From positions 1-37,140 of the IMG/VR virus record IMGVR_UViG_3300035670_000672: a stretch of 37,140 nt of DNA. The stretch is one strand, 5' to 3'. Source of the DNA: a virus. Lineage: Duplodnaviria; Caudoviricetes. The notes under the pieces are model-generated. The model was not told the origin of the DNA. It did not search any database and saw only the letters and a list, made by a program, of their open reading frames with translations. Shown here piece by piece: positions 1 through 30,906 of the stretch (position 1 is its first letter; every line of letters starts with the position of its first letter). Made by a program: the position numbers and the translations under genes.

Positions 1-1518
1 TGGGACAAGGTATCTCATGCTAAAGCCTTGGAGATGGAGAAGGCTGGCATTGACCCGCGCAAGGTATGGAGTGAGACAGGTAACTGGAAAGCGCCAGATG
101 GTATGTGGCGCCAGGAGATACCGGATAACGCAGCTGCTTTGCATCCAATACTAGAAAGCGGCGACATAACGCGATGGGATAGCACGGATGGCATATCTGC
201 ACTTGGAAAAGACGGACTGATGCAGCATGGTTTTCTTGAAGGCGCATATCCTGAACTGTCAAACATCAACACTGTTGGACGCGTTCAAACTGAATTGGGC
301 GGTTTTCTTGATGCCATAAGTGGAAACTCTATTCCTTCGTCTACATATGGCGGATATGACGAAGTAAATAATTTACTTGCCCTTACTTCTCCGCTTAATA
401 AGGCCAAATCCACCACGCTCCACGAACTGCAACACGCTATCCAGCAAAGAGAGGGATTCGCTAGAGGTGGAAGTGCTGAACAGATGCAAAAAGAATTTGA
501 GAGCGCAAAGTCTCTAAACGATCATTTTTCAATGGCTAATGCAATAGCTACGTCAGCAGAAAAAGATTTCGGTGGAAATCTTGATAAAGCCTTGGAATGG
601 TTTATTGAAATGGGGTTTGGCGCTGATAAATCTCACATTGACACCATAATGACAAACGGGCAAAAGCGTGTAGCAAATTTGGCTGATAAATATGCGCAGA
701 AAGCAAAAGATTTAGGTGTAAACAACCAATACGCAAGCGGTTATGACCTATACAAGCGCCTAGCCGGAGAAGCCGAAGCACGCGCTACGCAAGCCCGTAT
801 GAACATGGATATGCCGCAACGCCTACAGACCTATCCAGCAGACTCATACGATGTACCGCTAGACCAGTTAATAGTCAGGTATGACAACGGGCCAGCAATG
901 AGCGCAGGAAGGCCCGTCAACCATCTAGGCCAAGAAATCCCCCCCACACAGTACGAACTAGCCCACGCAGAGGCGCAGCGGGTTGCAGCGTTGCCGATAG
1001 AAGAAGGCGGGTTAGGTTTGCCGGTGAACAATACGGCGATGGATAGGGCGCGTGCTATGGGGTTTGACGGTGAAGATGTGTATCACGCGACAACAAAAAC
1101 ATTTGACGAGTTCAGGCCAAGTACATCGGGCATGTTCGGGCATGGTGTGTATTTTGCAGATAACCCAAGATATGCAGAAGAATATTTACGCGGCGGCCCA
1201 CCATCGATAATCCCAGCAAAAATAAGAGGAAATCTTGTTGAGCCGAAGAAATACCACGAGGCTATAAACGTATTTCATGAAGCAAAAAAACAAGGAGACG
1301 TATTTGAAAGCATCAAAAACAGCGGGATTGACGGCGTTGATTACAAAAACAATGAATTGGTAGTTTATGACCCAAAAAACATCCGCTCCCGCTTCGCCGC
1401 CTTCAATCCCGCTAACCGCGACAGTGCCGACCTACTAGCAGGCCACCTTCTACCGTTACTTGGTACTGGCGCACTAGGCTACGGATTGCTTGGTAGCGAA
1501 GAAAGTTATGCACGTTGA
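1..1518 (+). CDS. Polyvalent-type protein, 5'-truncated by the window: LPD23-like zincin metallopeptidase fused to a C-terminal ADP-ribosyltransferase (ART-PolyVal-like); probable virion/ejected protein
   Basis: Frame is open from base 1 (WDKVSHAKALEMEKAG). LPD23-like motifs: VWSETGNWKAPDGMWRQEIPD, TLHELQHAIQQREGF (HExxH) and YKRLAGEAEARATQAR. ART motifs: VYHAT, GHGVYFAD and GIDGV..NELVVYDPKNIRS. Confidence 0.8.
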   Translation, partial: WDKVSHAKALEMEKAGIDPRKVWSETGNWKAPDGMWRQEIPDNAAALHPILESGDITRWDSTDGISALGKDGLMQHGFLEGAYPELSNINTVGRVQTELGGFLDAISGNSIPSSTYGGYDEVNNLLALTSPLNKAKSTTLHELQHAIQQREGFARGGSAEQMQKEFESAKSLNDHFSMANAIATSAEKDFGGNLDKALEWFIEMGFGADKSHIDTIMTNGQKRVANLADKYAQKAKDLGVNNQYASGYDLYKRLAGEAEARATQARMNMDMPQRLQTYPADSYDVPLDQLIVRYDNGPAMSAGRPVNHLGQEIPPTQYELAHAEAQRVAALPIEEGGLGLPVNNTAMDRARAMGFDGEDVYHATTKTFDEFRPSTSGMFGHGVYFADNPRYAEEYLRGGPPSIIPAKIRGNLVEPKKYHEAINVFHEAKKQGDVFESIKNSGIDGVDYKNNELVVYDPKNIRSRFAAFNPANRDSADLLAGHLLPLLGTGALGYGLLGSEESYAR

Positions 1519-1600
1519 TTTACAATAACAACACCAGTCACGCCTAGAATGTGGTGGCACACCGTATGCTGGCTCGAAAGGGCGAAGCGCACCAGACTGG

Positions 1601-1801
1601 TTACTTACAATGTTGGACTTTTTGTTGGACTACCCTGCCAAGCCTAGTGTTTACTGAGTAGTCCGATTCCTTCCATTGGTCATGGATGCGTTGTGCCTCG
1701 GCTTTGTCGGAAGTCCCAGTGCTTCGCATAATGCGCCGCTGGCCTTTGACCGAGATACTGGCTTGCCAGTAGGGGGATTTCTTGTCTTTGTAGAGTGACA
1801 T
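1601..1801 (-). pseudogene. int: N-terminal arm-binding fragment of a phage tyrosine integrase (66 aa, no catalytic domain)
   Basis: MSLYKDKKSPYWQASISVKGQRRIMRSTGTSDKAEAQRIHDQWK is a typical integrase N-terminus and overlaps the 3' end of xis in the usual arrangement. It stops about 20 codons later, and no R-H-R-Y catalytic domain is visible in the window. Confidence 0.75.
1611..1666. repeat. Putative integrase arm-type sites (attP remnant)
   Basis: Direct repeat TGTTGGACT at 1611-1619 and 1623-1631, plus an inverted near-copy GTAGTCCGA at 1658-1666. They sit where attP is expected, between the late-operon end and int. Confidence 0.45.
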
Positions 1802-1962
1802 GCGTACTGACTTCTTAACCAATCCATGATGTCAGTATCTATAAAAACCCAAGCCTTGCCTACCTTGGCGGCTGGAATTTCTCCACCAGAGGCTAGTTTG
1901 TAGATGGTGTCAACGCTGCAACGTAGCAGCGCAGCAACCTGTTCAACGCCCAGAAACGTCAT
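1651..1962 (-). CDS. xis: Excisionase-like HTH protein (HTH_17 type)
   Basis: MTFLGVEQVAALLRCSVDTIYKLASGGEIPAAKVGKAWVF..DIMDWL; directly upstream of and overlapping the int fragment. Confidence 0.85.
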   Translation of the reverse strand: MTFLGVEQVAALLRCSVDTIYKLASGGEIPAAKVGKAWVFIDTDIMDWLRSQYACHSTKTRNPPTGKPVSRSKASGALCEALGLPTKPRHNASMTNGRNRTTQ

Positions 1963-2104
1963 TGTGTGCAAGGCATACCGTATGGCCGCGATCAGTTTGG
2001 CAATCAATCTGGAACACGTTTACCGGCTTTTCCCAGTGATGGACAATACCGGCGATGATGGCCGCGCCTACGAAAATCTCGAAGGCTATGAGAAGTTTGG
2101 TCAC
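1943..2104 (-). CDS. Small membrane-anchored hypothetical protein
   Basis: GTG start overlaps the upstream stop (GTGA); N-terminal hydrophobic stretch LLIAFEIFVGAAIIAGIV. Confidence 0.55.
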   Translation of the reverse strand: MTKLLIAFEIFVGAAIIAGIVHHWEKPVNVFQIDCQTDRGHTVCLAHNDVSGR

Positions 2105-2292
2105 TTCGAGTCCTCCGGTTGGAACATCATGTCCAGACCCTTTTGGATAGCTGCACTGATCTTGGGCCAACTATCTCTAGCAACTACTGCGGTGATGGTT
2201 AGTTCTGCCACATCTTCATCAAACATCTTTAACTTGAACACACCATCCTCACCTTCGTCGTAAGCCTCAATCTCTGTCGGGTATAGTTTCAT
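2101..2292 (-). CDS. Small acidic hypothetical protein
   Basis: 63-aa ORF with SD AAGGA and an ATGA overlap with the upstream gene; fits the operon tiling. Confidence 0.7.
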   Translation of the reverse strand: MKLYPTEIEAYDEGEDGVFKLKMFDEDVAELTITAVVARDSWPKISAAIQKGLDMMFQPEDSK

Positions 2293-2444
2293 TTCCTTTT
2301 CCCCAGAATCTCTCGGCGAATTTCGCCGATCATATTGTCCAGCCGGTCTAACAGGTATTCCGGCATTCGATTACCGGTGGCATAACTCCATGATTCAAGC
2401 GCCGAGAGCAACATCATGATTTCGATTAGTTCTTCTTTAGTCAC
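2289..2444 (-). CDS. Small hypothetical phage protein (51 aa, below ORF-track cutoff)
   Basis: GTG start after AAGGA; MTKEELIEIMMLLSALESWSYATGNRMPEYLLDRLDNMIGEIRREILGKRK; fills the gap exactly. Confidence 0.7.
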   Translation of the reverse strand: MTKEELIEIMMLLSALESWSYATGNRMPEYLLDRLDNMIGEIRREILGKRK

Positions 2445-2447
2445 CGT

Positions 2448-2858
2448 TTAATCCTTTCCAAATCCAGAAACATAAGGTTCGCCCATAGCTTCGCGCCACT
2501 TGTGGTCGGCTTCGTGGTAATCCGATAGCAGTGTTACCGCTTCAGCCCAATAAGGGTCTTGCTTGTTTGACAACACCATACACTCCATCAGCACGGCAAA
2601 GCGATGACAGAATTCAAGGGCTGGGTCGGATTCGATTTCTTTAATTCGTTCGGCCCGGATACGTGCAAGCGCGTTCGCTTCGCCGAGTAAGTCATACAAC
2701 CATCCAAGCTCGGAGTTCAACGCTTCGCGTTCTTCATATAGTTGATACTCGGTAAACAGTTTGGTTCTATTTGGTAATACTTTATAAAAGAGTGTTCCGT
2801 CAGCGTAATAGATTCCTACTGGTTTCACATCACGCAGGTATTCAGTGATGTCAGTCAC
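2448..2858 (-). CDS. Hypothetical phage protein
   Basis: 136-aa ORF with GTG start in a tightly packed leftward operon. Confidence 0.7.
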   Translation of the reverse strand: MTDITEYLRDVKPVGIYYADGTLFYKVLPNRTKLFTEYQLYEEREALNSELGWLYDLLGEANALARIRAERIKEIESDPALEFCHRFAVLMECMVLSNKQDPYWAEAVTLLSDYHEADHKWREAMGEPYVSGFGKD

Positions 2859-2859
2859 C

Positions 2860-2946
2860 TCACATTCCTTTCAATAAAACAATATTGAGAATGATCGACG
2901 CAATGCTGATTATGATTGCCGCCACACTCATAATGATCTCTAGCAT
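2860..2946 (-). CDS. 28-aa single-pass membrane peptide
   Basis: MLEIIMSVAAIIISIASIILNIVLLKGM; fills the gap between neighbours with 1-bp spacings. Confidence 0.55.
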   Translation of the reverse strand: MLEIIMSVAAIIISIASIILNIVLLKGM

Positions 2947-2947
2947 T

Positions 2948-3181
2948 TCAAATCCCCATATCCAATAACTTACGTTTACCTTGATCCAGTACCATGTATG
3001 TTTGACCAGCACTTAGGTTTCCACCAAAACAAAATACTTCTACGTGGCCACCAGCGTAGTATTCAACGCATGCGACCATTAATGGCTTCTCTCCGCCTTC
3101 AATTTCATCAGCACGCTCGCGCAGCATCCTTGGGATGTTCACACAGGGCGGTTCAAAGTTCACTTCAGTTACGTTGGTCAT
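2948..3181 (-). CDS. Hypothetical phage protein
   Basis: 77 aa; SD GAGGAG; ATGA overlap with the upstream gene. Confidence 0.7.
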   Translation of the reverse strand: MTNVTEVNFEPPCVNIPRMLRERADEIEGGEKPLMVACVEYYAGGHVEVFCFGGNLSAGQTYMVLDQGKRKLLDMGI

Positions 3182-3402
3182 TTCAACTCCTCTTCAAGGC
3201 GTTTGTACGCCATCTCGCTGTGGTGTCTCCCCTTCACAGCGATAAGATTCTTGGCAGCAGCCTCAATCCTGCACAGACGTTCGACTTCATCTGCTAATTT
3301 CCATTGGAAAGTCTCTTCTTTCGTGCTCTCGTCATACTCATCAGCAAACGCCTCTGCGTCTGCCCGTAGAGTTTCGATTAATCCTTGCATGTCAGTCGTC
3401 AT
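3178..3402 (-). CDS. Hypothetical phage protein
   Basis: Start moved to MTTDMQGLIE (SD GGAG upstream); 74 aa, helical. Confidence 0.7.
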   Translation of the reverse strand: MTTDMQGLIETLRADAEAFADEYDESTKEETFQWKLADEVERLCRIEAAAKNLIAVKGRHHSEMAYKRLEEELK

Positions 3403-3556
3403 ATTCGACACTTGTTTCTCCAATGTACTGTGCGGTAAGCCAGCACGATACGAAAAATGCAATCTCAGCAAACCAACGTAAACTGAAAAGTTCTCCTGTT
3501 TGTATTAATGCTCCGTACACAAAACTGAATCCAAAAGGTAATAGCATTTTAGTCAT
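3392..3556 (-). CDS. Small two-helix membrane protein (54 aa)
   Basis: MTKMLLPFGFSFVYGALIQTGELFSLRWFAEIAFFVSCWLTAQYIG; fills the operon gap. Confidence 0.55.
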   Translation of the reverse strand: MTKMLLPFGFSFVYGALIQTGELFSLRWFAEIAFFVSCWLTAQYIGETSVEYDD

Positions 3557-3557
3557 T

Positions 3558-3812
3558 TCATTCACCTGTTATTCCAGCCGCATAAATAGTGGCCATCGTT
3601 CTAGCTACTGCAAGTTGACTCTTAGCGTAGTTGACATCTCTGGTACTCAGGGCGTGGTTGGGAACCTCGATTTCAACTGTCGTCCGCTTGTGTCCGTTTT
3701 TGCACTTGCAGTAACGCTTTGTGCCGTACTCACCACGCTCTGTTGTGGTAACGAGTTCAACAGCACCGCAAGTTGGGCACAGCCTCTTGCTTGTACTACC
3801 TTTTGTTCTCAT
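3558..3812 (-). CDS. Zinc-ribbon protein (NrdR-N-terminus/Ogr-like), possible regulator
   Basis: CPTCGA...TKRYCKCKNGHKRTTVEI resembles the CxxC...RRRxCxxxHRFTTxE pattern. Confidence 0.65.
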   Translation of the reverse strand: MRTKGSTSKRLCPTCGAVELVTTTERGEYGTKRYCKCKNGHKRTTVEIEVPNHALSTRDVNYAKSQLAVARTMATIYAAGITGE

Positions 3813-3828
3813 AGGTGTCTTTCTGCCT

Positions 3829-4188
3829 TCATTTGGTGTTATGCACCTTGGCCGGTGTATAACTTGCGTTGGGCGTCTTTCGTGCCGTCCTGCCAGCGCC
3901 GACTTTTTGCGTCAGCTTCTGGTTTTCTGCTAGCGTCACCCAGTCCGGGTCTTCGCGCCAGTTCTCAGGCATCACCGAGAGCACATCAAGCCGCAGTTTG
4001 TGCAGTTTCATCCGCCACTTCCGTGCATCGCGTTCAAGCTGTCGCGCCAACGGAGCAAGCTCCATGTGCACCGCTTCGTAATATTCCGCTTGTTCGGTGC
4101 GTCCGGTTCCGGGGTGCTCTGCCATCGTCAAGGCAATCAGGCAATCAACCTGCGGCGTCGCGTCGTCTGGAAGCATGTCAAACCTCAA
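3829..4188 (-). CDS. Hypothetical protein, cargo of cassette A; C-terminus reads into the neighbouring attC arm
   Basis: 119 aa ending KTPNASYTPAKVHNTK; the Asn codon is the complement of the GTT at 3868-3870. Confidence 0.7.
   Translation of the reverse strand: MRFDMLPDDATPQVDCLIALTMAEHPGTGRTEQAEYYEAVHMELAPLARQLERDARKWRMKLHKLRLDVLSVMPENWREDPDWVTLAENQKLTQKVGAGRTARKTPNASYTPAKVHNTK
3838..3875 (+). mobile_element. Degenerate attC-like half site (R' present, R'' absent); left boundary of the cassette array
   Basis: Hairpin GTTATGCACC-TTGGCC-GGTGTATAAC, then TTGC-GTTGGGCG. GTTGGGCG (3868-3875) is the exact complement of CGCCCAAC (4422-4429). Confidence 0.6.
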
Positions 4189-4402
4189 CGCCGTGGTTCT
4201 TCGCGCTGCCTTCGTCGCGTTCTTCGGCCTGCTGCCGAATCCTGTTGTACTCTGGCAGCAGGTGCATGGCGTCCGCTTCGTGGTGCATCACCCACACGAT
4301 CATTTGGTTCAGTTCCAGCGGCAGTTCTTCGGTCGTCATTTCCAACCTGCTTCCGGTGGTGCATTTAGCGCTGTATTTGGCCTTCACGGTTTCCATCGTC
4401 AT
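4178..4402 (-). CDS. Hypothetical protein, cargo of cassette A
   Basis: 74 aa; SD AAGGA between the attC R'' and the ATG. Confidence 0.65.
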   Translation of the reverse strand: MTMETVKAKYSAKCTTGSRLEMTTEELPLELNQMIVWVMHHEADAMHLLPEYNRIRQQAEERDEGSAKNHGVEV

Positions 4403-4422
4403 CTTCCTTTCCGGGCGCAGCC

Positions 4423-4488
4423 GCCCAACAAATCATTCAACGCGGACTGGCCGAAAAGCCGGCCAGCCGGTTAATTCAAGCGTTAGCG
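4423..4488 (+). mobile_element. Complete attC recombination site (66 bp)
   Basis: GCCCAAC-AAATC-ATT[C]AAC-[G]CGG-[A]CTGGCCG-aaaagc-CGGCCAG-CCG-GTTAAT-TCAAGC-GTTAGCG. It has R''/L''/L'/R' boxes, a 5/6-nt unpaired spacer and three extrahelical bases. The ATTCAA...TTAATTCAAGCGTTAG arms resemble aadA-type attC. Confidence 0.9.
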
Positions 4489-4489
4489 G

Positions 4490-4780
4490 TCATCTACGCC
4501 CACCACTGCCAGCAGCCATGCCCATGCCCATCGCTGTACCAGCCGCAACACCTAGCGCAATATCTCCGCTGTCGGTGTTGGGTCGTGTCTGTCCGGGGAG
4601 CATGTATTCTTCGCGCAGAGCCTGCCATTCTGCTGGCGTAATCTCATGCCCTGGGTGCGTCTTCATCCACGCGCCATACAGCATTGCCGTTTTCTCGGGC
4701 TTCTCGCCGCACCCCGCTAACACGGTGGTCAACAAGGACGCGCCGATAAGCGCCATTCGTTTGGTCTTGCTGGTATTCAT
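4490..4780 (-). CDS. Small lipoprotein, cargo of cassette B
   Basis: MNTSKTKR (basic) + MALIGASLLTTV + lipobox LAG-C; SD GGAG at 4788-4791; Gly/Ala/Met-rich C-terminus. Confidence 0.8.
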   Translation of the reverse strand: MNTSKTKRMALIGASLLTTVLAGCGEKPEKTAMLYGAWMKTHPGHEITPAEWQALREEYMLPGQTRPNTDSGDIALGVAAGTAMGMGMAAGSGGRR

Positions 4781-4837
4781 TCGTTTTCTCCAGTTGTGGC
4801 GTCCGTTGTCGGCGCGCCTGTTACCGTAGCGTTAGCA
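4715..4837 (+). mobile_element. Complete long attC site (123 bp, VCR-like architecture) overlapping the 5' end of the lipoprotein gene
   Basis: CGCTAAC-ACGGT-GGT[C]AAC-[A]AGG-[A]CGCGCCGATAA-GCGCCA...loop...TGGCGT-ccg-TTGTCGGCGCG-CCT-GTTACC-GTAGC-GTTAGCA. CCGCTAAC (4714-4721) is the exact complement of GTTAGCGG (4482-4489). Confidence 0.88.
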
Positions 4838-4838
4838 G

Positions 4839-5582
4839 TCATGTCCCGCACCCGAACAACCCGGAGCAGGATTCCTCTTCTTCCTCAAAATCGCCACGGT
4901 CGCGGCCATCCTTGGCCCACGTCATTACGCCGTGAATCCCAAGCGCGCCAAACCGTTTTGCCCGGAACATCGGGCGCGCAATCTCAACTTCCAAGTCATT
5001 CACCCGTTCAACCTCTCCTGGCGTCAGCCGCAGGAAGTCTCCACGGTTCGCATTAACGCAAGGGCTACATTCCTTGCTTCGGTGCGGCAGCTTCTCAATC
5101 CCGGCCCGTTGCAGCAGTGCATCGCGCTCGGCTTCGGTGTGCAGGTAAAGCGGGTGCCAGAGCGTGCGCCCACCGTGGCATTCCGAGTCCTTCACAAATT
5201 CCGGCGTGTCCTTCCGCGCTTTGCTTTCCTCTCGGCGCTTTCCCACCATCACCACGGCTTTGCATTCCGGGTCTGCCTCGTCCAGCCATTGCAGGAACGG
5301 AACACCCTTCAAGTGCATGGTGCAAAACTGCTGCTTGCCGTTGCCGGGAAATCCGCGCTTCATCCGCACCAGTTCGGCCATGCCCATGCTTTTTATCTGC
5401 ACCACTTCAAACCCCATCGCCTTTGCCGCCGTCTCGCCAGCGCCGACTTTTTGCCACCATCCCGGCGAGGCCCATCCGGTGTCGCAGTAGGCCACCACAA
5501 CATTCTTTAGCCCGCGCTCGTAGGCCCATCGAATCATCGCCATCGAGTCGTTGCCGTAGCTTGCCGAAATCACGTAGTCCAT
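4839..5582 (-). CDS. PAPS reductase family (PP-loop, CysH/DndC-like) protein, cargo of cassette C
   Basis: SASYGNDS PP-loop, YCDTGW, FP...FCTMHLKGVP, GKRREESKAR, WHPL, ECSPCV and a C-terminal Cys pair. Confidence 0.85.
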   Translation of the reverse strand: MDYVISASYGNDSMAMIRWAYERGLKNVVVAYCDTGWASPGWWQKVGAGETAAKAMGFEVVQIKSMGMAELVRMKRGFPGNGKQQFCTMHLKGVPFLQWLDEADPECKAVVMVGKRREESKARKDTPEFVKDSECHGGRTLWHPLYLHTEAERDALLQRAGIEKLPHRSKECSPCVNANRGDFLRLTPGEVERVNDLEVEIARPMFRAKRFGALGIHGVMTWAKDGRDRGDFEEEEESCSGLFGCGT

Positions 5583-5782
5583 TTCTCTATCTCCAAAAAT
5601 ATCCCGCCCGGCGCGTAAAGCGCCTCAAACTCTCCGTCCCACGCCACGAAAGAGCGCGTCCCGTCGTGCATCGCCCAATGTTTGCCGCACCGAGTGCAAC
5701 CAACCTTTCGCGCTCCGTGGTTCAGCACACGCTCAACAATGTAACGGTGGCCGAATACAGCACAAATCATCCGTTCGAGCAT
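5570..5782 (-). CDS. Small zinc-binding prophage protein (DUF1660-like), cargo of cassette C
   Basis: ICAVFGHRY...CTRCGK motif; SD GAGGAGG. Confidence 0.65.
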   Translation of the reverse strand: MLERMICAVFGHRYIVERVLNHGARKVGCTRCGKHWAMHDGTRSFVAWDGEFEALYAPGGIFLEIEKWTT

Positions 5783-5797
5783 CTATCAACCCTCCTC

Positions 5798-5826
5798 GCC
5801 TAACACGGCATTCGAGCGGGACGGCT
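5798..5826 (+). mobile_element. attC left half-site (R''-L'' only); right boundary of the array
   Basis: GCCTAAC-ACGGC-ATT[C]GAG-[C]GGG-[A]CGGC has the same spacing as the two complete sites; I found no matching L'-R' arm downstream. Confidence 0.7.
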
Positions 5827-5836
5827 AGCTTCTCTG

Positions 5837-6007
5837 TCATTCCAGCTCCTGTTGTTTCTCTTCGTTACCAGCCTTCTGAGCCTCAATCCCTGCGGCGTAT
5901 CCAGCTAGGAAGCTGGTCCAGACCGCCTTAGTAAATGCGGCGTCGAGGCTGCCGGTCTTGGCCAGCTTCTCTTGGAAGGCTTGTCGGACTATCTCGACGC
6001 CGATCAT
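5837..6007 (-). CDS. Small hypothetical protein (56 aa)
   Basis: MIGVEIVRQAFQEKLAKTGSLDAAFTKAVWTSFLAGYAAG; SD AGGAG; ATGA overlaps at both ends. Confidence 0.65.
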   Translation of the reverse strand: MIGVEIVRQAFQEKLAKTGSLDAAFTKAVWTSFLAGYAAGIEAQKAGNEEKQQELE

Positions 6008-6312
6008 TTGGCACTCCTGTAAACACCGTAACGGCTACCACTCGGCATCTGAACCATTCGCACAAGATCAATCCAGCCGCGCTTTCGCATGGTCTGTATG
6101 CAATGCCCATCCCCCCATGTATCTGCTTCCTGCAAATCCCACTTGGTGAATTCTTCTGGAAGTCGATCAAGGATCAGTCGCCAGCGGCGGAATGCTCTGT
6201 CCTGGATGACTCTGCTACCGGCACGCGACATGAGCGCACGGCCTAACTTCCGCGCTTCTTTCGGATTAGCCCTCAGAAGTTCAAGGTACTGATCTTTTTG
6301 AAGACGTTTCAC
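6004..6312 (-). CDS. Hypothetical protein, possibly winged-helix
   Basis: 102-aa basic ORF; GTGA overlap with the upstream gene. Confidence 0.6.
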   Translation of the reverse strand: MKRLQKDQYLELLRANPKEARKLGRALMSRAGSRVIQDRAFRRWRLILDRLPEEFTKWDLQEADTWGDGHCIQTMRKRGWIDLVRMVQMPSGSRYGVYRSAK

Positions 6313-6857
6313 TTTTCATCAACCTTTGTATATAGTCCGTGCGCGTCACGCTCAATCCATCCATATTGGAGTGCAAGTTTCAATTCACCGGCAACAGACT
6401 TCTTGCCGCAAAACTGCTTTACATCTTCAGCCCTGAAATCTGTATCGAGATGGCCTAGCAGTTCCTTGATTCGCCTGCGTGATTCAATGCTTGCCCTTGT
6501 TTCTGGACGCTTGCCGCTTGCGTGGTATTCACGCAGCTTGACAGACCGCTCCATTGATTCGGATTCAGCCTTGTAGGAGTAAGCAACAATCGCATCTCTA
6601 GCTCGCTCGGCATTAATGTCGAAAATGTCGCAGTACCACTCAAAACTGCGTGGCAACTTGTCGCCAGAAAACACCCATGTCATATCAAATGTCGCGCTGG
6701 GCACTTCAAGTCGCTGACCTGCACGGTATTCATTGATCGCTCTACGGTGCATATACAAGTCTTTTACGCACTGGTTAATGCCATCCATAAAGGCGGCTTT
6801 AGCCAGCCGTACATAACCATCGACTTGTTCTTCGGAGATTAGTACGGCGGTGTCCAT
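6309..6857 (-). CDS. Hypothetical phage protein
   Basis: 182 aa; TGATG-coupled; SFEWYCDIFDINAERARD motif; C-terminus resembles a winged helix. Confidence 0.7.
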   Translation of the reverse strand: MDTAVLISEEQVDGYVRLAKAAFMDGINQCVKDLYMHRRAINEYRAGQRLEVPSATFDMTWVFSGDKLPRSFEWYCDIFDINAERARDAIVAYSYKAESESMERSVKLREYHASGKRPETRASIESRRRIKELLGHLDTDFRAEDVKQFCGKKSVAGELKLALQYGWIERDAHGLYTKVDEK

Positions 6858-7102
6858 CAGAAAGGCACTTCGTCGTTGAATTCTGTTTTAACCTGTTTTG
6901 CAGTAGGTTTTTGTGCTGCTTTTGCCTCTTTAGGCTTGACAGACAGGCTCATAAACTTGCCGCTTTTGCCTTCCTTGATCCATGCAGACAACCAATAATC
7001 AGTACCTCCAACATTGATTGAACCGTTGTAATCAGGGTGGTTATCAGTTTCCTTGCGGTCATTCTTGAATAATGCACCACGATCAGTATTATCGTATTCC
7101 AA
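6857..7102 (-). CDS. Small ssDNA-binding-like protein (DUF736-like) with acidic SSB tail
   Basis: TTG start after AAGGA; GALFKNDRKETDNHPDYNGSI...YWLSAWIKEGKSGKFMSLSV; ends FNDEVPF; adjacent to the recombination genes. Confidence 0.75.
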   Translation of the reverse strand: MEYDNTDRGALFKNDRKETDNHPDYNGSINVGGTDYWLSAWIKEGKSGKFMSLSVKPKEAKAAQKPTAKQVKTEFNDEVPF

Positions 7103-7118
7103 TTTATTTCCTTTCAGA

Positions 7119-7328
7119 TTAAGAGTTAGATGCCTTATAGGCTTCCCATGCGACAATAGAATTCTCCATTACTTTCACTTGCGGCCCTTTATTGTAAGGA
7201 CAATGTTCCGTGGCCCAGAACTTGGCTATTTCCTCCATCCACTTCAAATTACTTTCGTACTTCTTGCACTCCAATTCAGATACAAACAACTTGCCATCTT
7301 TTGCCAGGAAGGCACTTACCATTTCCAT
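7119..7328 (-). CDS. Hypothetical phage protein
   Basis: AFLAKDGKLFVSELECKKYE motif; SD AAGGAG. Confidence 0.7.
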   Translation of the reverse strand: MEMVSAFLAKDGKLFVSELECKKYESNLKWMEEIAKFWATEHCPYNKGPQVKVMENSIVAWEAYKASNS

Positions 7329-7901
7329 TTACTTCTCCTTAGATTTGCGCTTCATGCGCGGTGGTTCTTGCTTGGTAATAACGTAATGCCAAAACTCTCT
7401 TGCACCGGCCATTATTTCCTCAAACGCATCATGGTCATACTCGACACGCTTGAGGAATGGCTCTCTAGTCTCGCTCCAACTCCAAAAATCAACCCACTTC
7501 CGACCAGTGCAGGCCAATTGAACCTGTATTTGGATCATGTATTCATCTGGCACTTCTTCATGCGGTATTCCGTTGAACCGGCATTTAACTTCCAGAAGCC
7601 CGTCAGAGCCGATATAACCGTCTGGAGAAGCTGCAAGCCATGTCACAATGGGATGCACCACTAAAGGCGCGGGATCAACGAATACGCCGGTCTTGCACTC
7701 ATATTCAGCGATTGCAATAGGTTCATTCTCAACGCCATACAACATTGCTTCGCTACGCTCGACTTCTGGCTCAAGTCCCATATATTGACGCCAGAGTTTT
7801 TGGCGGCTGGTGTACTTGGATTTGCCAATGGCTGCTGCAACCCGGCTACCCGTTAGTAGCTTCTTGCGTTGCTCAAACCATTCTTCGGTGCGTTGTTGCA
7901 T
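7329..7901 (-). CDS. YqaJ/lambda-exonuclease family 5'-3' exonuclease
   Basis: Start MQQRTEEWFEQRKKLLTGS (TAATG-coupled); YGVENEP, ASPDG, LLEVKC and YMIQIQVQL motifs. Confidence 0.9.
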   Translation of the reverse strand: MQQRTEEWFEQRKKLLTGSRVAAAIGKSKYTSRQKLWRQYMGLEPEVERSEAMLYGVENEPIAIAEYECKTGVFVDPAPLVVHPIVTWLAASPDGYIGSDGLLEVKCRFNGIPHEEVPDEYMIQIQVQLACTGRKWVDFWSWSETREPFLKRVEYDHDAFEEIMAGAREFWHYVITKQEPPRMKRKSKEK

Positions 7902-8416
7902 TACGCTGCTTCCAATTCTTTCCGCCGAGCAGAGAAGGCTTCCTGATTTGCAGAGCGTTCTTCTTCGCTCAACTTCTTCCACATTGCTTTTAACTGTTCC
8001 AAGTCTGAAGTTTTAATTTCCTTGGCGATCTTCTCGCTGGCTTCTTTCTTGGCTTCTTCCGGTAGGTCCTCGCCAGCGTAAACGTATAAGCCTAGTCCGT
8101 GGCAGGCGATAGCCTTCACCAGACAGCGCATCATGTTCTTGTTAATGTCGAATGCATTAGGCTGTGGAATGGCGCGGTTACGGTGATCCATAACTGGCAA
8201 CCACATATACACAGGCTTGCCGAAAGCCGTTACCACGCAGCTAACCATCATCGTGCCGTCTGGGTACACGGTTGGCTCATTCATGTGCCAGTTCGCATCA
8301 GGATCGTGCCGCATAAGCTGGTCAACTGCCCATGCCCAGGACAGGTATGAAAGCCCGTTCTTTTTCTCGATGTGTTCGCCTACGTTGATTGCGGATAATT
8401 TTTCAAAGTTGTTCAT
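7901..8416 (-). CDS. Single-strand annealing protein (DUF1071/Sak3-like)
   Basis: EKKNGLSYLSWAWA, WLPVMDHRN and RCLVKAIACHGLGLYVYAGEDLP; paired with the exonuclease. Confidence 0.88.
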   Translation of the reverse strand: MNNFEKLSAINVGEHIEKKNGLSYLSWAWAVDQLMRHDPDANWHMNEPTVYPDGTMMVSCVVTAFGKPVYMWLPVMDHRNRAIPQPNAFDINKNMMRCLVKAIACHGLGLYVYAGEDLPEEAKKEASEKIAKEIKTSDLEQLKAMWKKLSEEERSANQEAFSARRKELEAA

Positions 8417-10621: not shown

Positions 10622-11298
10622 GCCTAGACGCAATGAGATGGGCATTGATGCAGCAGGTAGGAAGATCATCGGCAAAGCTAGTTTTGATTTCACTGGCAGA
10701 CCGTGCAGACGAAGATAATTTCTGTTTCCCATCGGTTAGTCGGATTGAATTTGACACTGAACTTGACCGTAAAACAGTCATCGAGTGCATAACTTACCTT
10801 GAAGAAAAGAATCTGATTTCGGTAAATAGAGCTTCCGGTATGGGTAACAAGTACAGCCTTATTGGGGTTCCAAACAGGCATGAAACCAGTCCCAAAAACG
10901 GTACCAGTCCCAAAAACGGTACCAGTCCCAAAAACGGTACCAGTCCCAAAAACGGTACTGCTTTATCCACAACCAGTCCCAAAAACGGTACTGCTTTATC
11001 CACAACCAGTCCCAAAAACGGGACACTAACCATAGATATAAATACTAAAGACAAAAAACCAATGCCGGATTGGTTGCCTGTAGATGAATGGGATGGGTAT
11101 GTCGAGATGCGGAAGAAGATTAAAAAGCCGATGACGGACAGAGCGGTGTCAATCGCAATATCAAAACTTACAAAGTTCCGCGATCAAGGAATTGATGTGG
11201 CAGTTGTCCTTGACCAATCCGTAATGAACGGCTGGCAGGATTTGTACGAACCAAAGAACAACCGACAAACCAGATCATCTGGAGGTCTAGCACTATGA
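10618..11298 (+). CDS. Replication initiator (lambda O-like, N-terminal HTH_36-like) containing the origin
   Basis: AKLVLISLADRADEDNFCFPSVSRI..TELDRKTV; internal iteron block; C-terminal WDGYVEMRKKIKKPMT...SVMNGWQDL domain. Confidence 0.88.
   Translation: MSLDAMRWALMQQVGRSSAKLVLISLADRADEDNFCFPSVSRIEFDTELDRKTVIECITYLEEKNLISVNRASGMGNKYSLIGVPNRHETSPKNGTSPKNGTSPKNGTSPKNGTALSTTSPKNGTALSTTSPKNGTLTIDINTKDKKPMPDWLPVDEWDGYVEMRKKIKKPMTDRAVSIAISKLTKFRDQGIDVAVVLDQSVMNGWQDLYEPKNNRQTRSSGGLAL
10885..11022 (+). repeat. Replication origin: six 18-bp iterons with two DnaA boxes
   Basis: ACCAGTCCCAAAAACGGT starts at 10885, 10903, 10921, 10939, 10972 and 11005 (last base G in the final copy). TTATCCACA at 10963-10971 and 10996-11004. 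An A/T-rich tract follows. Confidence 0.9.
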
Positions 11299-30601: not shown

Positions 30602-30906
30602 AGCCACATCTTCCTATTCCGCCAAGTGATACCTACCAGCAAAGCCTATCGCTTCGCCTGACAACGCTACTGCGTCAGGTTGGCCTACAGATCGACCAGT
30701 TAAAAGGCGGCTACCTGTCTGCCCACTCCAACCAGCGCAGTGCCGCACCGACCACAGGGTTATGGGCGGTGGGCGATCAGGTTAGGAATGACACGCCAAG
30801 TGAACTAGGCACAGTCGGAAGCAAATACGTTATTACCGGATGGATTTGTGTAACCAGTGGAGAGCCAGGCACATGGAAACAAATGCGCGTACTCACTGGC
30901 AATTGA
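30595..30906 (+). CDS. Small tail-associated protein
   Basis: AAPTTGLWAVGDQVRN..P......GWICVTSGEPGTW module. Confidence 0.65.
   Translation: MVEPHLPIPPSDTYQQSLSLRLTTLLRQVGLQIDQLKGGYLSAHSNQRSAAPTTGLWAVGDQVRNDTPSELGTVGSKYVITGWICVTSGEPGTWKQMRVLTGN

Follow-up and report, generated by a model that had tools for sequence, protein, structure and literature searches.

Using the 37,140-bp IMG/VR record IMGVR_UViG_3300035670_000672, which comprises a whole phage (CheckV completeness 99%) and which we call the window, i.e., the whole stretch of DNA that was analyzed, we identified an array of integron-type cassettes between 3838 and 5823 in which every cargo gene is inverted relative to the attC recombination sites. 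Judged by its sequence, this is an attC cassette array without an integrase, of the kind termed CALIN (several attC sites grouped together with no integron integrase), and is not a complete integron. Our comparison of viral and bacterial sites demonstrated that inversion of the gene relative to attC is the rule in phages, and that such cassettes recur in unrelated phages with their left edge at the G|TT crossover. The sites and cassettes of the array are as follows:

3838 to 3874, + strand: left docking site, attI-like or a decayed attC right arm, crossover 3868|3869
3869 to 4482, + strand: cassette A, two inverted genes with attC1
4423 to 4488, top strand +: attC1 (66 bp), crossover 4482|4483
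4483 to 4831, + strand: cassette B, one inverted gene with attC2
4715 to 4837, top strand +: attC2 (123 bp), crossover 4831|4832
4832 to 5823, + strand: cassette C, a predicted fusion of two cassettes, junction at 5598-5600
5797 to 5823, + strand: truncated attC3 (R'', spacer, L'' and the start of the stem), right arm deleted, predicted unable to fold

Both complete hairpins are attC sites by sequence and predicted structure. Sites of this class range from 55 to 141 bp and are built as R''-spacer-L'' and L'-spacer-R' arms with AAC and GTT cores, and attC1 and attC2 share this architecture in length and in layout, with an R'' ending in AAC, a 5-nt spacer, an L'' with an extra C at its fourth base and two further unpaired bases (G4442 and A4446 in attC1, two A in attC2), i.e., three extrahelical bases per site on the R''-L'' arm. 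The initial annotation had proposed that these hairpins and a third half-site share one attC layout, and for the two hairpins our covariance model, R1, agrees with it, matching attC1 at 40.2 bits (E 5.6e-8) and attC2 at 24.6 bits (E 4.4e-4) on the + strand only. The next best match in the 37-kb genome, at 30656-30680, scores 13.7 bits and was rejected as chance. R1 was built from 40 of 42 non-redundant bacterial attC sites, two lacking a right arm having been dropped, with the training sites picked by one degenerate attC pattern searched in viral and bacterial collections. Many of the bacterial pattern matches are arrays in Xanthomonas, Luteimonas, Arenimonas and their relatives, 12 of the loci contain an integrase motif, and R1 additionally detects, in locus L153, three class 1 integron attCs that were not among the pattern's picks. 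No left arm in the window scores higher than the half-site at 5798 (20.0, compared to a maximum of 11.9 in 30 shuffled windows). The covariance model replaced both the pairing of arm scores by position weight matrix, which missed both full sites, and a first heuristic scanner, which was noisy; alignment A1, scanned over the genome with only 2 patterns, gave no match, which is a weak negative. Folding z-scores are modest for attC1 (-2.1 bottom strand, -2.5 top strand) and stronger for attC2 (-3.5 and -3.9), and the truncated attC3 gives no hairpin (z +0.8).

The footprint of circular insertion described in the initial annotation is also present. The first bases of cassettes A and B complement their own R'' at 8 of 8 positions (3868 against 4422, and 4482 against 4714), and the two ends of each single attC match each other less well (5 of 8 for attC1, 7 of 8 for attC2). 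A CALIN is defined as at least two attC sites on one strand within 4 kb with no nearby intI (PMC4889954, Cury et al. 2016, in the portion of that paper dealing with definitions), and the array has two attC sites on one strand and no intI. Searches of the whole genome returned no match to TIGR02249 (integron integrase, IntI) or PF00589, i.e., no tyrosine recombinase domain, in agreement with the absence of an integron integrase reported initially. Nor is there the layout for a cassette promoter (Pc) reading from the attI side, as the genes point towards the left site. These genes are:

3829 to 4176, - strand: 115-aa gene, no assigned function, its final 13 codons extending past the 3868 crossover
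4178 to 4402, - strand: 74-aa open reading frame (ORF) with a Shine-Dalgarno (SD) sequence, start 20 nt left of the attC1 R''
4490 to 4780, - strand: 96-aa predicted lipoprotein gene, with its SD, start and signal peptide encoded by the attC2 loop and left arm
4839 to 5582, - strand: 247-aa gene of the PAPS reductase family (PF01507 at 29.8 bits, cut-off 22.5; phrog_424 at E 1.7e-27)
5570 to 5782, - strand: 70-aa gene, DUF1660-like via its relatives

All five lie on the bottom strand, as first described; four have an SD and the fifth is coupled to its upstream stop, with none of the five top-strand ORFs of at least 50 aa inside the cassettes having one. The usual cassette rule, a gene on the top strand ending before its attC, does not hold here. 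Two cargo genes do stop at the eighth base from a crossover, and the block is richer in GC (0.587 for 3869-5823) than its left flank (0.462), both as reported, and also than its right flank (0.487).

The systematic inversion singled out in the initial annotation extends to phages generally. Among the matches listed, 102 of 121 distinct viral sites and 194 of 216 distinct bacterial sites had enough flanking sequence to be classified; the viral sites divide into 71 inverted, 5 normal and 26 ties, and the bacterial sites into 10 inverted, 128 normal and 56 ties. An SD-led bottom-strand start at the attC is present in 73 of these 102 viral sites versus 3 of the 194 bacterial sites. A second method, using whole cassettes, classed 97 of 189 viral cassettes as inverted, 14 as normal and 78 as unclear, versus 14, 209 and 49, respectively, of 272 bacterial cassettes, and in 40 of the 97 inverted viral cassettes the gene reads across G|TT. 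In viral locus L004, attC polarity flips where operon direction flips. Both of the divergent operons in this locus (575-8208) contain inverted attCs, and core genes of the ERF-like and SSB-like types have attC sites on either side, a layout that suggests insertion at several secondary sites. Separately, all 3 cassettes of L164, a Rhodanobacter caeni contig, were called inverted in a bacterial assembly, possibly within a prophage.

Comparison of the cassettes with their relatives showed that homology ends at the predicted G|TT, both at 4831 and at 3868. Relatives of the PAPS gene are 89-97% identical in 7 of 11 viral loci and 77-97% identical in 16 of 24 metagenome loci. Of the close relatives, 17 were non-duplicate and could be read on the stop side, and in 12 of them the DNA homology sets in at the G|TTAGC seen at 4831. 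A different attC precedes this edge in nine of the 12 and non-attC DNA in three (L001, L321 and L325), which is what secondary-site insertion would give. Relatives of the 115-aa gene depart from it immediately past the residues that the 3868 crossover encodes; for example, proteins P0002 and P0009 match it as far as RKTPN and then have different tails. A contig from sequencing run X1 (depth 4.2) shares 4805-4834 with the window and then has a different cassette start right after the attC2 G|TTA, an attC2 swap that suggests recent exchange. The two ends of the PAPS cassettes complement each other at 8 of 8 positions in six of eight cassettes and at 7 of 8 in the other two, and in 124 of 166 phage cassettes all seven initial bases are complementary to the R'' of that cassette, compared to 12% in a mismatched-pair control.

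Since this complement is symmetric, it cannot tell which attC travels with the gene, and for this we compared the attC bodies. None of 21 PAPS pairs share the left body and 6 of 28 share the right one; for all three non-PAPS cassette pairs, similarity is 0.77-0.79 between the right bodies and 0.35-0.49 between the left bodies. This sharing of right over left bodies corresponds to the classical bottom-strand polarity, as set out in PMC2727003 (Bouvier et al. 2009) in its treatment of strand choice, and a top-strand model in which the left attC travels with the gene was rejected as the main route on the PAPS pairs. Applied to viral loci, R1 found 250 sites in 73 loci; the best 150 contain 134 distinct phage attCs, which in an alignment fitted to the model have 92.5% of cells paired and 475 compensatory cells, a number reached in 0 of 500 shuffles. 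The joint of an excised circle was not seen in contigs from 4 runs, which is uninformative since contigs drop rare forms.

The right end of the array appears to have decayed. The start of the third cassette (4831) matches the R'' at 5797 at only 6 of 8 positions because cassette C is, on our analysis, a fusion. In L335-L337 the 70-aa gene occupies an intact cassette, whose start complements the 5797 R'' and which has a full attC, and homology between these loci and the window runs from 5598/5600 to 5823; PAPS homology in relatives runs from 4829/4831 to 5599, with their own attC a few bases beyond 5599. We thus read cassette C as two cassettes fused by deletion, i.e., a PAPS cassette minus its attC joined to a DUF1660-like cassette minus its first ~30 bp. 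By the same comparison, the half-site at 5797 is a real attC cut off at 5823, so that the attC layout claimed for it holds and its proposed extension to 5826 does not; it is now the truncated attC of the fused cassette, and the same truncated site is present in L309, a viral locus with a different backbone. At the other end, the left site, which is common to L309 up to 3857, has an accessory GTTAT, located 30 nt ahead of the crossover, as well as an internal inverted repeat, and scores 13.0 as an attC right arm. A GTTA is found at -31 in 6 of 26 phage integron sites and at -32 in attI1 of L153, and the left site may be an attI, although it also scores as an attC right arm. We discarded 12 of 13 matches to a 16-mer of this site as chance matches in other genes.

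An integrase could be supplied in more than one way. In phage L006, an inverted array that includes the PAPS cassette of the window has at its left end a gene for an IntI (463.6 bits, TIGR02249 cut-off 265). Scanning with this protein identified 62 viral loci; 11 of the 12 tested pass the cut-off and the twelfth is a fragment. Of 49 distinct upstream regions, 28 contain attCs, all on the strand expected of an integron, with 11 inverted, 14 tied and 3 normal. A quick tree built from 33 phage and 41 bacterial IntI proteins groups 24 phage proteins in a phage-only branch (SH-like approximate likelihood ratio test 97), with bacteria sampled from one order and a few loci, the phage set chosen by similarity to L006, and L400 left out. 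IntI-like matches are also present in 138 of 401 genomes of one betaproteobacterial order, a set that includes two unpublished genomes on which no other claim depends. The proposal that a host IntI acts in trans is supported in that such genes are common in bacteria, and not in making the host the only supplier, as a phage IntI clade exists; the host and other phages are both possible sources. L006 (4870-6111) and L347-L380 are complete phage integrons, with inverted cassettes reading towards intI and a shared attI layout. KX853513.1 (H24), a 41-kb virus from an enrichment culture, has an IntI-like gene annotated as xerD, and is not named in the tables of PMC9892861 that were consulted.

The surrounding genome has a lambdoid layout: the repressor and cro-like genes lie at 9.5-10.2 kb, iterons at 10,890-11,020 accompany an O-like initiator gene, the primase-helicase and head genes follow on the right, and a leftward minus-strand gene run includes Sak, YqaJ, SSB and an excisionase. 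The leftward early promoter (pL) is placed from this gene layout, since a promoter scan was at chance level (9 found versus 7.7 expected, none promoter-like at the left site). In this setting we think it quite probable that IntI acting in trans, from the host or a co-infecting phage, inserts and excises cassettes by the bottom-strand reaction, that the phage operon expresses the inverted genes, that deletions lock old cassettes in and that homology between arms reshuffles the rest. IntI would recombine the folded bottom strand, with a circular cassette opened at G|TT and inserted into the left site, another attC or a secondary site. Because they are inverted, the genes would be expressed from the phage operon, i.e., read from the leftward early promoter, with the ribosome often starting in or crossing an attC. 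Ordinary deletions (the 5598-5600 fusion and the 5823 truncation) would decay the array and lock in older cassettes, and the conserved attC arms could double as short homologies for Sak/YqaJ, or for top-strand crossovers at R'', that reshuffle the bodies. Two likely reasons for the inversion may be proposed. Inverted genes would be co-directional with the fork from the ~10.9-kb origin, with the recombinogenic strand on the lagging-strand template, which favors folding according to the part of PMC8946536 concerned with this; and normal host cassettes, many of them anti-phage, would be silent when landing in the operon.

Several points weigh against this reading. Orientation calls are heuristic, 25-41% of viral sites were undecided and the sites are not independent. 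The search pattern was drawn from phage sites, making the R1 test partly circular, and R1 is neither the IntegronFinder nor the HattCI model. All evidence for movement is sequence comparison, run X1 may be the source sample, and the G|TT edge is missing in 5 of the 17 PAPS relatives. As to the host, the best cultured relatives of the portal protein are at most 42% identical, and 5 candidate genomes have no portal match. Among PAPS cassettes, similarity of the right bodies is not correlated with similarity of the genes (rho -0.08, 28 pairs), and one attC body lies to the left of the PAPS gene in one phage and to the right of it in another. Finally, L309 shares 3551-3857 and 5800-6006 with the window at 96-97% and holds one different inverted cassette between these flanks, with breakpoints within the left site and at the R'' start, not at G|TT. 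Loose ends in runs X1 and X2 match this L309-type variant. The claim of exchange at G|TT thus stands at 4831 and 3868 and fails for the L309 swap at 3857/5800 and for the reshuffled bodies, which together require a second exchange route. Candidates are a top-strand crossover at R'' or short-homology exchange in the arms by a pair of neighboring genes with a putative role in this:

7329 to 8416, - strand: YqaJ exonuclease and Sak annealing protein (PF09588 and PF06378, above cut-off), 1.5 kb from the array

Rad52-like phage recombinases drive mosaicism on diverged DNA (PMC3945230, De Paepe et al. 2014). L309 and the body swaps apart, the cassettes behave as units moving from G|TT to G|TT with their own attC. 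A 704-bp block of small genes (2861-3566), absent from L309 and from one run X1 contig, is a second variable spot, without attC.

A broader reading, which we offer tentatively, is that phages run their own mirror-image integron economy, with a phage-specific IntI clade serving inverted cassettes that many integrase-less phages have in common, inversion acting as a firewall that keeps host defense cassettes silent, and new cassettes arising in early regions from ordinary phage genes. Our data point to a largely separate phage-side pool of integron cassettes. No attC is present in 19 of 20 loci with mostly distant PAPS homologues, and no clear attC in 4 of 6 loci with distant (52-72%) homologues of the 70-aa gene (L340, L343, L344 and L346 have none, L342 a weak one), which would fit cassettes made from phage genes and would also fit site loss. 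It is also possible, if doubtful, that a complete phage integron, assembled in cis, lost or replaced its intI and survives as this block, now mostly frozen. The left site, with its GTTAT at -30 and inner inverted repeat, resembles some phage attI sites, 56 nt separate the crossover from the start of a bottom-strand gene to its left (59 nt for the intI of L347), and the right end is decayed; as history, this is compatible with our preferred explanation. However, no intI remnant was found in the genome, the attC2 swap in run X1 suggests recent exchange, the -31 motif is absent from 20 of 26 phage integron sites, and the 3868 site has an attC right-arm score too.

We regard as unlikely the idea that the attCs are relics of past IntI activity that now serve mainly as short homology linkers for Sak/YqaJ swaps between co-infecting phages. 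One double crossover in the arms (~8 bp left, ~22 bp right) would explain the difference between L309 and the window, the attC bodies are reshuffled and Sak and YqaJ lie close by, in line with the mosaicism described in PMC3945230, but this leaves unexplained the clean G|TT edges by non-attC DNA in L001, L321 and L325, the start/R'' complement in 124 of 166 cassettes, the compensatory pairing, the one-sided bulges and the right-over-left inheritance of bodies. Capture of a piece of a bacterial chromosomal integron in one event is very unlikely and already largely refuted. The GC step at the block edges and the resemblance of the attCs to Xanthomonadales and betaproteobacterial arrays would suit it, as would the captures published in PMC9892861 (in the parts consulted), but bacterial cassettes almost never have SD-led bottom-strand starts (3 of 194 versus 73 of 102, among the matches listed), close relatives of the cargo genes are in viral and short metagenome contigs, the best PAPS match in 400 genomes (226 bits) is without attC, and 192 phage cores gave no blastn match to 153 bacterial loci (a small sample). 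It is hardly credible that the hairpins arose by chance or are terminators or RNA elements with no part in recombination, given the covariance model scores, the homology breakpoints and the lack of a terminator-like match at attC1, even though they sit between co-directional genes and attC1 folds only modestly.

Clusters of attC sites in phages are already known, as the initial annotation stated. Qi et al. 2023 (PMC9892861) report, in the text consulted, 17 CALINs in 10,705 phages, and 5 of 6 tested phage attCs recombined with IntI1 at G|TT, the bottom strand being preferred. Like the window, these have at least two attCs and no intI in a phage; the main text consulted describes a typical array structure and no inversion, which figures or supplements could show. 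The window differs from that account in that the genes are as a rule inverted, their starts lie within attC or their reading frames cross it, and comparison shows that the cassettes move. With bacterial cassettes, CALINs and single attC sites lacking integron integrases (SALINs), the window has in common the attC anatomy, the G|TT crossover, a right-hand attC with its gene and secondary-site insertion; IntI can use short secondary sites for cassette insertion (Loot et al., bioRxiv 10.1101/2022.09.11.507474). It is unlike them in its bottom-strand genes, in having their own SD beside or inside an attC, in the frequent exchange of attC bodies and in probable expression from the phage operon in place of Pc at attI. 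As presented in the sections of PMC2727003 on strand selection, an extrahelical base marks the recombining strand, the bottom strand crossing in R' and the top strand in R'', and this marking is shared with the window; strand choice there guarantees expression from Pc, to which the window cassettes would be antisense in a host integron. Lambdoid mosaicism, as treated in PMC3945230, likewise swaps early accessory genes at short shared sequences with Sak present, and differs in that the shared sequences here are structured attCs with a defined crossover. In the literature covered, which takes in few subscription journals, and in the portions of PMC8618304 and PMC13323075 consulted, which add nothing, we found no report of systematic inversion or of a phage IntI clade; it is these, and not phage attC clusters as such, that appear to be new.

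Detailed examination of the cargo proteins gave few assigned functions. The 115-aa protein has 15 relatives at 69-92% identity and no Pfam or NCBIfam family, and the 74-aa ORF has no match in protein-family searches. The 96-aa ORF begins inside attC2, with its predicted lipobox (LAG-C) over the attC2 R''; its 2 relatives (79-86%) vary precisely in the 4715-4780 stretch that encodes the signal peptide and lipobox, and its Atlas neighbors, at 0.8 only, are a lead. The PAPS protein has no PDB relative, and the 70-aa protein has 112 homologues, many with PF07874, and no Pfam match itself. In viral contigs there were no relatives of the backbone ORF 6309-6857 or the ORF 3829-4188, and one 11-residue match to the ORF 4490-4780. 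A blastn search with 3700-6000 gave no match in cultured phages and one 48-bp chance match in plasmids. Many phage hypothetical proteins (among P0002-P0059) have variable tails after PN, AN or SN, i.e., read-through of attC bottom strands. A 23-bp motif occurs twice in the window (3884-3906 and 5428-5450), both within cargo genes and never in the backbone. In phage loci it occurs 22 times at places other than the PAPS gene, frequently close to attC; among bacteria it is present in 9 of 201 genomes, as a dispersed high-copy repeat in G582 (168 copies) and G435 (58), and it resembles a host signature of the DNA-uptake type. G582 also carries a chromosomal integron. Elsewhere in the window, the excisionase gene (1601-2007, - strand) overlaps a 73-aa stub that by eye resembles an integrase N-terminus with no room for the rest, in a phage with repressor genes and apparently without an integrase; and 28-1518 (+ strand) encodes a polyvalent-type protein with LPD23 and a below-cut-off ART-PolyVal match, probably cut by the contig start.

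Our findings indicate that phages use integron sites widely, with opposite gene polarity and their own IntI clade. They offer a site-specific mechanism for part of the mosaicism of phage early regions, and the variable tails after PN, AN or SN could be a protein-level marker for inverted cassettes. Integrons are regarded as a bacterial tool whose uses include the storage of anti-phage genes, and their cassettes include phage-defense systems (bioRxiv 10.1101/2024.07.02.601719, in the part consulted), and the inverted phage cassettes provide a large set of small mobile genes to screen for counter-defense functions. The origin of cassettes is termed an unknown mechanism in the relevant passage of PMC4889954, and these phage arrays may give a testable handle on how cassettes originate.

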